In this document: piece by piece, positions 16,838 to 19,658 of the stretch
Position numbering within the stretch: position 1 is the stretch's first letter
Layout: the number at the start of each line of letters is the position of its first letter
Assembly: GCA_965224465.1 (NCBI GenBank)
Contig: OZ245049.1
Span: 3,720,001 to 3,752,000 of the forward strand
DNA: 32,000 nucleotides
Direction of reading: 5' to 3'
DNA from: Flavobacteriaceae bacterium
Lineage (GTDB): Bacteria; Bacteroidota; Bacteroidia; Flavobacteriales; Flavobacteriaceae
The notes under the pieces: model-generated
Seen by the model: only the letters and a program-made list of their open reading frames with translations
Told to the model about the DNA's origin: nothing
The model's database searches: none
Position numbers and translations under genes: made by a program

Positions 16838-17626
16838 ATGGTAGATGCGACTTTTAATTACAAACGCCCTATAACCCATACCCAATACAAACATGGCGAT
16901 AAAGAAACCAAAAAAGGAGGGTTTAGCAGAATGCTGACTATGCGTATAACAGATAACAAGCAAATTGTAAGAAAAAGTGATGTAGGTACTAAAGGGGGGC
17001 TTCCCTTTGCTACAGATGTTTTTTTAAAATGCCCTGTTGTTCCTAAGATAATGCCATTATGGTTGGGTAGCCTATTTTTATTTTTATTTTTATTTTGTAT
17101 TTATGTATATCTTACACCAAGTGACAAAGACAATGGCGATTATATATTATTTTATTTAATAACTTTTCTTTCTTTTCTAGGGTTTTTGTTTTTTGCAACC
17201 TATTATTTTACGATGCCAACAAAAGAGCTTATTTTTAATAGAGCGGACGGTTTGGTTACTTTTCCTGGGTTTATGTGGCATAAAAACATAACAATGCCTA
17301 TACATAAAATGATGTTTTCTATGTCATCGCCTAGTACGCAAGGAGGAGGCGCTTATATGTTGCAAATTGTACGACCAGACAGAACGTATTCTTTGTATTT
17401 GTGTTCCTATGGGCTTAGTTGTTATGAAGATTTATCATTCTTTTTATGGTATATGGATAAGAACAGACCATTACCTACGGGGGAAGGTTTTGATCCGTGT
17501 CGTTTACAAGATTATGAACGTAGAAAATCTGAGGGTTTCCCTAAGCCATTATTTCCTTGTAGTTTTGAAACTCCAGAAGCTACGCTTGAACAACAGGCAG
17601 AACGTGAGCGTATTGGCGGTTGGTAA
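16838..17626 (+). CDS. 2-TM membrane protein, paralog A of a tandem triplet (candidate immunity protein of the PAAR-HET-C effector)
   Basis: 262 aa. Two hydrophobic helices (IMPLWLGSLFLFLFLFCIYVYL / ILFYLITFLSFLGFLFFATYYF). Near-identical to 17854..18636 and 18864..19658 outside aa ~84-112. No family recognised. Confidence 0.7.
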   Translation: MVDATFNYKRPITHTQYKHGDKETKKGGFSRMLTMRITDNKQIVRKSDVGTKGGLPFATDVFLKCPVVPKIMPLWLGSLFLFLFLFCIYVYLTPSDKDNGDYILFYLITFLSFLGFLFFATYYFTMPTKELIFNRADGLVTFPGFMWHKNITMPIHKMMFSMSSPSTQGGGAYMLQIVRPDRTYSLYLCSYGLSCYEDLSFFLWYMDKNRPLPTGEGFDPCRLQDYERRKSEGFPKPLFPCSFETPEATLEQQAERERIGGW

Positions 17627-17653
17627 AAGTTGATAGCGCAAAGCAATGCATTC

Positions 17654-17674
17654 GCGCGGATTTAAAATCCGCGC
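17654..17674. promoter_or_regulatory. GC-rich perfect hairpin GCGCGGAT-loop-ATCCGCGC in each repeat spacer (also at 18664-18684 and 19686-19706)
   Basis: 8-bp G/C-rich stem, conspicuous in an AT-rich background, 28 nt after each 2-TM gene stop. No following T-run, so it is not a canonical intrinsic terminator. The third copy ends 10 nt before the TTG that opens ORF 19717. Confidence 0.5.
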
Positions 17675-17853
17675 CAGTAACTGAGTGTCTGCTAGGAATG
17701 TTTTGCGGAAAGGTTTACGGAAAAAGGTGATTTATGCATCATTAGAAAATACAGATGTAGTAGTAGATGAGAATGCGCACTGGTTTGAAACCTGTGATTG
17801 AGGAAACTGAGTAAAACTTGGTAAGAACAACTAACTAAGAGCTAAAAATAAAC

Positions 17854-18636
17854 ATGATAGATACTAAAAACAAAGAAAGTTTTAATTTCAAACGCCCTAT
17901 TACGCATACTCAATACAAACATGGAGATAAAGAAACCAAAAAAGGAGGATTTAGCAGAATGCTGACCATGCGCATAACAGATGATATGCATGTTATGAAA
18001 AAAAGTGATGTAGGTACTAAAGGGGGCTTTCCTTTTGCTACAGATGTTTTTTTAAAATGCCCTGTTGTTCCTAAGATAATGCCATTATGGTTGGGTAGCC
18101 TATTTTTATTTTTATCTATTTTGTGGGCTTATATAAGTACTGAAGAAGAAGGTCTTGCTGGTATTTTAGGAATTATATTTTTATTTTTAGGTTTTTTGTT
18201 TTTTGCAACCTATTATTTTACGATGCCAACAAAAGAGCTTATTTTTAATAGAGCGGACGGTTTGGTTACTTTCCCTGGGTTTATGTGGTGTAAAAACATA
18301 ACGATGCCTATACATAAAATGATATTTTCTATGTCATCGCCTAGTACGCAAGGAGGAGGCGCTTATATGTTGCAAATTGTACGACCAGACAGGACGTATT
18401 CTTTGTATTTATGTACAAGGGGCTATAGTTGTTATGAAGATTTATCATCTTATTTATGGTATATGGATAAGAACAGACCATTACCTACGGGGGAAGGTTT
18501 TGATCCGTGTCGTTTACAAGATTATGAACGTAGAAAATCTGAGGGTTTCCCTAAGCCATTATTTCCTTGTAGTTTTGAAACTCCAGAAGCTACGCTTGAA
18601 CAACAGGCAGAACGTGAGCGTATTGGCGGTTGGTAA
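17854..18636 (+). CDS. 2-TM membrane protein, paralog B
   Basis: 260 aa. Same architecture as A, with a unique TM1/loop/TM2 segment (SILWAYISTEEEGLAGILGIIFL). Confidence 0.7.
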   Translation: MIDTKNKESFNFKRPITHTQYKHGDKETKKGGFSRMLTMRITDDMHVMKKSDVGTKGGFPFATDVFLKCPVVPKIMPLWLGSLFLFLSILWAYISTEEEGLAGILGIIFLFLGFLFFATYYFTMPTKELIFNRADGLVTFPGFMWCKNITMPIHKMIFSMSSPSTQGGGAYMLQIVRPDRTYSLYLCTRGYSCYEDLSSYLWYMDKNRPLPTGEGFDPCRLQDYERRKSEGFPKPLFPCSFETPEATLEQQAERERIGGW

Positions 18637-18863
18637 AAGTTGATAGCGCAAAGCAATGCATTCGCGCGGATTTTAAATCCGCGCCAGTAACTGATTGTCT
18701 GCTAAGAATGTTTCGCGGAAAGGTTTACGGAAAAAGGTGATTTATGCATCTTTAGAAAATACAGATGTAGTAGTAGATGAGAATGCGCACTGGTTTGAAA
18801 CCTGTGATTGAGGAAACTGAGTAAAACTTGGTAAGAACAACTAACTAAGAGCTAAAAATAAAC

Positions 18864-19658
18864 ATGATAGATACTAAAAACAAAGAAAGTTTTAATTTCA
18901 AACGCCCTATTACCCATACCCAATACAAACATGGCGATAAAGAAACCAAAAAAGGAGGATTTAGCAGAATGTTGCCTATGCGTATAACAGATAACAAGCA
19001 AATTGTAAGAAAAAGTGATGTAGGTACTAAAGGGGGCTATCCCTTTGCTACTGATGTTTTTTTAAAATGTCCTATCAATCCTAAGATAATGCCATTATGG
19101 TTGGGTAGCCTATTTTTATTTTTATTTTTATCGGGTATTTTAATTATGTTGAGACCTAGTCAGCTTAAAATTGAATTGCCAGTAATTATTATGACGATAG
19201 TGTTTTTTCTAGGATTTTTGTTTTTTGCAACCTATTATTTTACGATGCCAACAAAAGAGCTTGTTTTTAATAGAGCGGACGGTTTGGTTACTTTCCCTGG
19301 GTTTATGTGGCATAAAAACATAACAATGCCTATACATAAAATGATGTTTTCTATGTCATCGCCTAGTACGCAAGGAGGAGGCGCTTATATGTTGCAAATT
19401 GTACGACCAGACAGGACGTATTCCTTGTATTTGTGTTCCTATGGGCTTAGTTGTTATGAAGATTTATCATTCTTTTTATGGTATATGGATAAGAACAGAC
19501 CATTACCTACGGGGGAAGGTTTTGATCCGTGTCGTTTACAAGATTATGAACGTAGAAAATCTGAGGGTTTCCCTAAGCCATTATTTCCTTGTAGTTTTGA
19601 AACTCCAGAAGCTACGCTTGAACAACAGGCAGAACGTGAGCGTATTGGCGGTTGGTAA
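18864..19658 (+). CDS. 2-TM membrane protein, paralog C
   Basis: 264 aa. Same architecture as A and B, with a unique TM1/loop/TM2 segment (FLSGILIMLRPSQLKIELPVIIMTIVF). Confidence 0.7.
   Translation: MIDTKNKESFNFKRPITHTQYKHGDKETKKGGFSRMLPMRITDNKQIVRKSDVGTKGGYPFATDVFLKCPINPKIMPLWLGSLFLFLFLSGILIMLRPSQLKIELPVIIMTIVFFLGFLFFATYYFTMPTKELVFNRADGLVTFPGFMWHKNITMPIHKMMFSMSSPSTQGGGAYMLQIVRPDRTYSLYLCSYGLSCYEDLSFFLWYMDKNRPLPTGEGFDPCRLQDYERRKSEGFPKPLFPCSFETPEATLEQQAERERIGGW

Follow-up and report, generated by a model that had tools for sequence, protein, structure and literature searches.

Three near-identical genes standing in tandem directly behind a type VI secretion system (T6SS) effector gene raise the question of what their products do, and with which toxin they belong. 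The window, that is, the whole stretch of DNA analysed here, comprises 32,000 nucleotides (nt) of a Flavobacteriaceae bacterium (GenBank assembly GCA_965224465.1, contig OZ245049.1, positions 3,720,001 to 3,752,000 of the forward strand), and the triplet (copies A, B and C) occupies positions 16838 to 19658 of it. A preliminary description, made from the letters alone, had taken the three proteins for candidate immunity proteins against a membrane-acting toxin and had paired them, by position, with the PAAR-HET-C effector upstream. We find that the triplet is likely to be an orphaned immunity array against VasX-family (BTH_I2691-type) pore-forming T6SS toxins, as gene position and distant homology indicate. 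Immunity against a membrane-acting toxin thus stays very probable, with a VasX-type pore former as the partner. The features that carry this reading are:

16671..16844, + strand: 3′ relic of a VasX-family toxin gene, 57 codons plus TAG, encoding KHQGHYFPCHIRNNPERAIESKFNLTKNIYTNSGENNTDNQNLVFDTLANLKLDKTW followed by the stop, which overlaps the start of copy A (ATGGTAG)
16838..17626, + strand: copy A, 262 amino acids (aa), hairpin type alpha, Bfi2/Bti2-like inner-membrane immunity protein with two transmembrane (TM) helices (predicted); bfi2_fam E value 9.3e-8, family hidden Markov model (HMM) 389 bits
17854..18636, + strand: copy B, 260 aa, hairpin type beta (protein alignment, family HMM)
18864..19658, + strand: copy C, 264 aa, hairpin type gamma (protein alignment, family HMM, AlphaFold2)

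Linkage to VasX-like toxins

We compared the triplet with 72 related loci (L numbers below) from species-representative genomes, mostly of Flavobacteriaceae (Tenacibaculum, Aquimarina, Cellulophaga) and Marinilabiliales; 59 of them, with at least 3.5 kb of upstream sequence, were informative for the upstream neighbour. The family genes nearly always form tandem arrays, of 2–10 copies. A VasX-like open reading frame (ORF) abuts a family gene in 49 of the 59 informative loci, usually with stop and start codons overlapping by 4–18 nt, so that the family gene lies immediately downstream of a VasX-family (Bte2-like) toxin; the window has only a relic of one. The usual upstream neighbour is ~1,025–1,150 aa long, matches Pfam VasX_N (PF20249) with 52–71 bits (gathering score 27) and has a hydrophobic Gly/Ala-rich region at about residues 700–860. 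Its match to NCBIfam BTH_I2691_fam, at 81–93 bits, lies under that model's cut-off of 150. The partner toxins were assigned to the VasX family on the strength of a VasX_N/MIX N terminus combined with a TM region toward the C-terminal third. They are preceded by VgrG and a separate PAAR protein of ~240 aa. In addition, C-terminal toxin fragments of 108–341 aa occur within the arrays of L002, L004, L010, L016, L025, L046, L050 and L058, each directly 5′ of a family copy.

In the window, 188 bp separate the stop of the HET-C gene (16649) from copy A, and it is here that the relic sits. A search with a profile of VasX-like C termini (hmmsearch) recovered it with an E value of 2.5e-8, and by blastp it aligned always to the extreme C terminus of VasX-like ORFs, the best match being residues 106–158 of a 158-residue fragment in L004 (38.6% identity, E value 9e-9). 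As a control, the best E value among 1025 non-VasX ORFs was 0.22. The stop of the relic overlaps the start of copy A in the same way as in intact loci. The relic with its native overlap, together with the family-wide VasX linkage, suggests that the triplet is an orphaned array that once lay 3′ of a VasX-like toxin gene. The gene order, three copies after VgrG, PAAR-HET-C and a VasX relic, with homologs adjacent to toxins elsewhere, is that of a T6SS orphan immunity array of the type described by Kirchberger et al.

Protein architecture and family relationships

Hydropathy gives two hydrophobic helices, and the AlphaFold2 model (predicted local distance difference test 87.3, predicted template modelling score 0.84) places them at residues 75–96 and 105–127 with an 8-residue loop between; some six beta strands and three helices come after them. 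In the 149 family members compared, the loop is short (median 6 residues) and acidic (0.5 K/R versus 1.8 D/E), the 20 residues after TM2 hold 3.5 K/R, and the net charge of the N-terminal domain averages +5. Since the flanks of the hairpin are rich in K/R and the loop is acidic, the positive-inside rule predicts an N-in/C-in topology with the variable tip in the periplasm. This agrees with the N-in orientation and periplasmic variable segment proposed in the preliminary description. By prediction (hydropathy, AlphaFold2 and the positive-inside pattern) the proteins are integral to the inner membrane, as are those of the VasX/BTH_I2691 immunity class.

No family had been recognized in the proteins at first, and for Pfam this still holds: no model, those of pore-forming colicin immunity included, matched at E ≤ 0.01. 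It does not hold for NCBIfam, where bfi2_fam (NF053700), an equivalog model of the Bfi2 immunity protein with a curated cut-off of 350 bits, was the sole recurrent match, found in 22 of 40 diverse members (best E value 1.2e-11). The similarity spans the TM hairpin and the following domain. Copy A scored 31.8 bits and copy C 20.3 bits, and with scores of 17–32 bits the family falls outside NF053700; an attempt to bridge to bona fide Bfi2 through 10 distant representatives failed, none exceeding 29.6 bits. The triplet thus appears to belong to a separate family, only distantly related to Bfi2/Bti2, which comprises 429 clusters at 50% identity, mostly from marine Flavobacteriaceae and Marinilabiliales, and has no Pfam model.

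Foldseek against the PDB returned no significant match for the full-length model (best E value 0.13). For the C-domain alone the best E value was 0.054, and the recurrent pleckstrin homology (PH)-domain-like matches were weak (E values 0.4–6, template modelling scores ~0.3); we therefore do not assert a PH-like fold for it.

A hypervariable hairpin on mosaic backbones

The three ~260-aa paralogs start 1016 bp (A to B) and 1010 bp (B to C) apart, and direct-repeat families in the window give 1010–1028 bp, bearing out the ~1010-bp period first described. The copies differ mainly in one patch, which encodes the outer half of TM1, the periplasmic loop and the outer half of TM2 (predicted topology):

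17088..17182, + strand: hypervariable hairpin cassette of copy A, FCIYVYLTPSDKDNGDYILFYLITFLS
18116..18192, + strand: hypervariable hairpin cassette of copy B, SILWAYISTEEEGLAGILGIIFL
19126..19214, + strand: hypervariable hairpin cassette of copy C, FLSGILIMLRPSQLKIELPVIIMTIVF

Mapped on the DNA, the patch essentially matches the variable segments delimited in the preliminary description; it is 95 nt long in A, 77 nt in B and 89 nt in C. Mean pairwise identity of the three copies, in 30-nt bins, falls to 38% and 31% in two patch bins, while the bins outside it are mostly 89–100% identical (one C-domain bin is at 80–82%, the first bin at 60% and the bin on the 3′ edge of the patch at 64%). Even when realigned, the patches reach only 0.56–0.62 identity, compared with 0.50–0.52 for shuffled sequence. 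A stretch of 206 nt across the 3′ end of the gene and the beginning of the spacer shows no difference among A, B and C. With pS of 0.04–0.25, the ratio of non-synonymous to synonymous differences (pN/pS) in the flanks is 0.06–0.38, indicating purifying selection.

Outside the patch, the differences cluster beyond chance in every pair (permutation P ≤ 0.0016) and form blocks in which the odd-one-out copy alternates among A, B and C, which supports a mosaic. In the protein alignment, A and C have in common DNKQIVRK, WHKN and CSYGLSCYEDLSFF, and B and C have in common MIDTKNKESFNF; all the motifs that had been reported as shared in different pairs were reproduced. The exchange between copies proposed on that basis gains further from paralogs elsewhere on the contig. 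By exact-sequence look-up, the 5.24-Mb source contig carries genes for at least four further full-length copies, and two fragments besides. The seven full-length copies and the fragments carry only three hairpin types: alpha in A, P0002, P0123, P0124 and the fragment P0126; beta in B; gamma in C and P0001. The flank blocks exist in two versions each (MIDTKNKESFNF or MVDATFNY; DNKQIVRK or DDMHVMKK; WHKN or WCKN; CSYGLSCYEDLSFF or CTRGYSCYEDLSSY), all four combinations of the N terminus with the second block are present among the contig copies, and the alpha and gamma hairpins are each found on both backbones. Such reassorted flank blocks and swapped hairpins show that the mosaic is a product of recombination and reaches beyond the window; the invariant arms PKIMPLWLGSLFLFL ... 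FLGFLFFATYYFTMPTKEL enclose a hairpin that behaves as an exchangeable cassette. Two scans of metagenome DNA, for the conserved arms together and for the right arm by itself, gave no match.

In all seven full-length paralogs, the version of the N-domain block (DNKQIVRK or DDMHVMKK) goes with a fixed version of the C-domain blocks (WHKN or WCKN; CSYGL..FF or CTRGY..SY), despite the swapped hairpin. This linkage points to two cytoplasmic backbones that are each co-adapted, possibly because the N- and C-domains touch.

Hypermutation by a diversity-generating retroelement was ruled out as the source of the variation, as patch lengths differ, all four bases vary and there is no template repeat of the patch; no reverse transcriptase domain was found among the window ORFs that were scanned, which were not all of them. 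The 88-aa ORFs found in another frame within each copy are by-products of the repeated sequence.

Hairpin types and co-variation with the toxin

The same trough of nt identity is seen in other arrays; in L056, with six copies, identity is 68–100% (mostly 86–100%) along the gene versus 47–52% at the hairpin. Within arrays the patch is 8–46% identical, mostly 16–20%, against a between-locus background of 16%, and the corresponding values for the C-domain are 56–96% and 61%. Across genomes, hairpins can be 86–100% identical where C-domains are only ~81–82% identical, and 10–25% identical where C-domains are 90–94% identical. Hairpin identity thus looks largely bimodal and decoupled from the backbone, which fits discrete types under constraint, not drift.

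The hairpin types appear to follow the adjacent toxin. Toxins that are 92–99% identical pair with adjacent hairpins 95–100% identical, and where closely related toxins have differing adjacent hairpins, the toxins diverge within a patch that has sharp borders and lies (at about residues 750–810 in L007 numbering) just before the Gly/Ala-rich TM region on its N-terminal side. The toxins of L007 and L019 are 93–100% identical in this patch, and their adjacent hairpins are of the same type. The L005 toxin is only 40–43% identical to them in the patch and 77–100% (mostly at least 87%) elsewhere, except for one bin of ~53% near residues 930–960; its adjacent hairpin is of a different type. The clade of L053, L054, L055 and L064 behaves likewise, patch identity of the L055 toxin to that of L064 or L053 falling to 3–40%. 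Toxin-adjacent types recur away from toxins: the hairpin of L007 copy 2 equals that of L005 copy 1, L053 copy 4 resembles L064 copy 1, and in seven cases a copy that does not adjoin a toxin matches, with 75% hairpin identity or more, the type found beside a toxin in another genome. Among 39 non-independent pairs, hairpin identity correlates with toxin identity at some of its highest values (0.58–0.65) in windows 736–765 to 826–855, and at about zero for residues 1–300, the delivery domain. Over all pairs the correlation is weak (rho ~0.1), because most hairpin pairs are at background identity and only close relatives are informative.

The VasX_N/MIX region of the toxin (1–300 in L007 numbering) shows rho ~0 with any part of the adjacent immunity protein, and the rest of the toxin does correlate. 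The delivery domain thus seems to recombine independently of the toxic part.

These family-wide comparisons lend support to the array of specificity variants that had been proposed for the triplet. That the hairpin itself encodes specificity is, in our estimate, an evenly balanced proposition. A fuller version, which we put forward tentatively and hold slightly less probable than its converse, is that the ~25–30-aa hairpin tip is a self-contained, exchangeable intramembrane specificity module that co-diversifies with a ~25–45-aa toxin patch by the TM helices, with Bacteroidota building combinatorial immunity repertoires by cassette swaps between otherwise homogenized paralogs, through short-tract gene conversion on the invariant arms.

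Proposed mechanism

Each protein would form an inner-membrane N-in/C-in helical hairpin, with a basic N-domain of ~75 aa and a conserved C-domain of ~140 aa in the cytoplasm. The toxin would arrive from the periplasm, and the loop and the outer-leaflet halves of the helices would bind its membrane-inserting region within the bilayer, so that pore formation is blocked, an action modelled on Tki5–Tke5. The ~25–30-aa segment would be the determinant of specificity, existing as discrete types, each matched to a variant of the hypervariable patch near the glycine-rich TM helices of the toxin. Tandem duplication would build the array and gene conversion would homogenize the flanks, while the hairpin cassettes would stay distinct and be exchanged through the invariant arms (PKIMPLWLGSLFLFL ... 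FLGFLFFATYYFTMPTKEL). In this way one genome could collect immunity against the toxin variants of its relatives. In the window, the VasX-like toxin gene itself has been lost, leaving the 57-codon relic.

Several observations weigh against this picture. The putative immunity function is read from position and distant homology, with bfi2_fam scores far beneath the cut-off (17–32 versus 350 bits); no intact VasX-like gene lies within the window; and Foldseek found no solved structure like the whole protein or its C-domain. For the alpha and beta hairpins, comparison with 290 family sequences gave no close counterpart (38–40% at best). The co-variation comes from about three clades of related genomes, with non-independent pairs, and has exceptions: L064 and L053 differ in hairpin type, yet just one 30-aa toxin bin falls (to 53%), and L030 and L032 share a hairpin type, yet one toxin bin falls to 67%. 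A type related to the gamma hairpin of copy C was found in P0005 (64% identity, where the median is 16%), which comes from another assembly and lies on a 2.9-kb contig with two tandem copies and without a toxin.

Alternative explanations

The pairing that position alone suggests, with the adjacent PAAR-HET-C effector, a phospholipase-like membrane toxin, has to be considered in view of the following genes:

11869..16649, + strand: PAAR-HET-C effector gene split by an insertion sequence (IS), with N part 11869–13833, transposase 13913–15346 and C part 15357–16649 (Pfam PAAR_motif, Het-C, DDE_5, DDE_Tnp_1)
11261..11884, + strand: DUF7738 lipoprotein gene (Pfam; lipoprotein-like N terminus)

The triplet does lie directly 3′ of the HET-C gene in the window, and in L025 family genes occur within 2.5 kb of a HET-C effector. 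However, the HET-C body is found in only two of the 72 related loci, L025 and L058, and is absent from the other 70, whereas VasX-like toxins abut the family in most informative loci; homologs thus show no recurrent linkage to HET-C effector genes elsewhere, the outcome that the preliminary description had itself named as telling against the pairing. Both loci encode uninterrupted HET-C homologs (those of L025 are 1127 and 1208 aa long, and both halves from the window align to them contiguously), and in both DUF7738 genes stand immediately beside HET-C, with the family genes further off: the order is HET-C, two DUF7738, a 341-aa VasX fragment and family genes in L025, and HET-C and two DUF7738 in L058, where the family array follows a separate full VasX-like toxin. 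DUF7738 genes in fact flank HET-C in all three loci that have it (window 11261–11884; L025 7776–8423, 11868–12515 and 12737–13522; L058 2820–3416 and 3495–4073), which makes DUF7738 a likelier candidate than the triplet for the HET-C immunity or accessory gene. We know of no described function for DUF7738. In the window, moreover, the VasX relic with its native overlap stands between HET-C and copy A, and a protein that is nearly all cytoplasmic or in the membrane is a poor fit to a lipase acting in the periplasm. We consider the HET-C pairing very improbable and do not retain it. Scarcely more probable is that the family serves VasX-like toxins as an accessory factor at the membrane (a chaperone, loading factor or regulator) and was duplicated together with pieces of the toxin. 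An accessory factor would be just as compatible with translational coupling to the toxin gene, but the sole recurrent homology is to a validated immunity protein, Bfi2; arrays of up to ten copies and orphan copies without a toxin fit immunity collections (for a precedent see PMC5361080), not fixed-ratio chaperones; and for each VasX-family toxin that has been characterised, the gene immediately 3′ specifies an immunity protein of the inner membrane (PMC13133200).

A third alternative concerns the hairpin only, and would leave it without a role in specificity: as the least constrained segment it would have drifted to saturation while gene conversion kept the flanks alike. The patch is indeed the least conserved region family-wide, TM segments tolerate many hydrophobic substitutions, and over all pairs hairpin identity correlates only weakly with any toxin region. 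Drift would, however, be expected to give graded identities, not the largely bimodal ones that hairpins appear to have, and the near-identical hairpins that persist on diverged C-domains speak against it, as do the five copies of this genome that keep alpha and the two that keep gamma on different backbones. Near-identical toxins go with near-identical hairpins, the sharp and length-variable boundaries of the patch point to replacement, and the toxin carries a matched local patch. We therefore regard drift as unlikely.

Spacers and formation of the array

The copies are separated, and copy C is followed, by repeated sequence:

17627..17853, + strand: spacer 1, a duplication junction of 131 nt of true 3′ flank and ~96 nt of 5′ flank of a B/C-type copy; GC-rich stem GCGCGGATTTAAAATCCGCGC at 17654–17674
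18637..18863, + strand: spacer 2, 98% identical to spacer 1; GC-rich stem at 18664–18684
19659..19788, + strand: right repeat end, the first ~131 nt of the spacer sequence, running into a 944-aa ORF; GC-rich stem at 19686–19706

Both spacers are 227 bp long, and their first 131 nt equal the sequence 3′ of copy C, arguing that the array arose by tandem duplication and that the spacers are the junctions. Behind each copy, the very AT-rich sequence holds a perfect inverted repeat of 9 bp that is GC-rich (GCGCGGATT...AATCCGCGC); it has no T-run and no Rfam match. Other identities were considered for the spacer and dropped: a terminator (no terminator-like site; fold z-score −1.5), a known RNA (no Rfam family) and a mobile element (no copies outside the array). 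At ~17809–17820 and ~18819–18830, ~38 nt 5′ of the B and C starts, one frame reads LRKLSKTW followed by a stop, which resembles the way VasX-like toxins end (KTW and stop) and could mark another toxin relic, tiny and too short for significance.

How the toxin gene came to be lost may be read from the effector gene now upstream of the triplet. Over its first ~180 residues, the PAAR-HET-C protein shares 52% identity with the stand-alone PAAR found ahead of VasX-like toxins, and the locus is rich in IS elements. These features, and the order HET-C, VasX fragment and family genes in L025, are consistent with recombination at the PAAR module as the route of displacement. The VasX-like toxin was lost, probably displaced by the PAAR-HET-C effector, and we infer that the gene order of L025 represents an intermediate state of this scenario.

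The remainder of the window

The 944-aa ORF downstream of the triplet (19717–22551) has no Pfam match, and its residues 24–533 resemble a region in L020. Its sole possible starts (TTG at 19717, or GTG shortly after) lie inside the repeated spacer sequence, so that spacers 1 and 2 each hold a decapitated copy of its 5′ end. Judged by eye, it looks like a peptidoglycan-hydrolase effector, with the next gene, 22556–23359, as its lipoprotein immunity gene. A second Hcp–VgrG module at 29413–32000 ends in the start of a stand-alone PAAR gene (31725–32000), the product of which is 58% identical to the PAAR preceding VasX-like toxins in L018; the DNA just past window position 32000 may hold an intact VasX-like toxin gene and an immunity array belonging to it. 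The rest is an effector island broken by IS elements (76–891, 1960–3885, 4911–5915, 6280–7965 on the − strand, 23687–24058 and 25474–26088), which holds an M23 peptidase, two phage-lysozyme-domain proteins, an IS30-like gene (HTH_38 and rve), an IS66 transposase and, by eye, an IstB-like fragment.

Significance and comparison with known systems

Among the weapons of the T6SS, VasX-family toxins occur widely, in Vibrio, Pseudomonas, Burkholderia and gut Bacteroides, and how membrane immunity proteins neutralise them has been called unresolved in recent papers (PMC13133200). The family described here offers natural chimeras, in which near-identical backbones carry discrete intramembrane cassettes with matching toxin variation, and which point to the recognition site and allow clean swaps. 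The analysis also names a sizeable family of 'hypothetical proteins', corrects a pairing that position alone gets wrong, and brings marine Bacteroidota under the effector-displacement model of orphan immunity arrays, to which it adds a layer of gene conversion and cassettes. If the hairpin tip is indeed a specificity module, toxin/immunity recognition for the whole toxin class would reduce to a short, readable helix–helix code, and diversification would, unusually, be targeted to a protein segment embedded in lipid. Orphan immunity arrays of the T6SS are already known, as are membrane immunity proteins to VasX-family toxins; what appears to be new is the unannotated family, the confinement of its variation to an exchangeable intramembrane cassette on gene-converted backbones, and the matched toxin patch.

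The closest characterised system is Bti2/Bfi2 of the Bacteroides fragilis GA3 T6SS, from the same phylum and with the same type of T6SS. Bfe2/Bte2 of B. fragilis is a divergent VasX-family pore former that acts from the periplasm, and Bti2 is its immunity protein (PMC12718326; for the Bte2/Bti2 naming see PMC7604300). Like the family here, Bti2 is encoded directly 3′ of a VasX-family toxin and can occur in tandem (Bti2a,b) and as orphan copies. The scores under the NF053700 cut-off and the 429 clusters set our family apart from it, and our literature search found no description of a hairpin-cassette pattern for Bti2. TsiV2, Tki5 and Pti2 are inner-membrane immunity proteins of proteobacterial VasX-family toxins (PMC13133200, PMC3857813). 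In the pairs Tki5–Tke5, TsiV2–VasX and Pti2–Ptx2, as here, a membrane-embedded immunity protein is encoded after the toxin gene, and the mode of action that we propose is the same; the likeness is one of description. These proteins share no Pfam domain with the family, and it matches no solved structure. Tke5 brings Tki5 along when purified from the membrane, and Tki5 was modelled against its TM region, in a mechanism that the authors call still to be elucidated (PMC13133200).

More distant parallels can be drawn with colicins and with Rhs and contact-dependent inhibition (CDI) systems. Immunity proteins of the colicin E1/A type are small inner-membrane proteins that act against a pore former delivered from the periplasm, with specificity set by intramembrane helix–helix recognition. 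They serve as a working analogy only, having 3–4 helices, no large cytoplasmic domains and no homology to the family in the Pfam scan. The strings of C-terminal toxin fragments, each with its own immunity gene, 3′ of a full toxin in related loci are like the orphan toxin-CT/immunity modules of Rhs/CDI systems, and the idea of displacement through recombination at constant regions carries over. Rhs/CDI systems, in contrast, swap an enzymatic C-terminal domain, whereas the variable part of the VasX-type toxins here is an internal patch near the TM helices.

The precedent for the array as a whole is Vibrio cholerae, in which T6SS orphan immunity arrays arise via effector displacement (Kirchberger et al. 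2017, PMC5361080). There, as here, immunity genes lie 3′ of the effector locus, members match cognate genes of other strains, and displaced-effector relics and IS disruption are seen; the VasX/TsiV2 (A-type) module of V. cholerae can be duplicated. The members of the V. cholerae arrays, however, are whole unrelated or divergent genes acquired by horizontal transfer, whereas those of the array described here are near-identical paralogs that differ in one ~90-nt intramembrane cassette set between gene-converted flanks.

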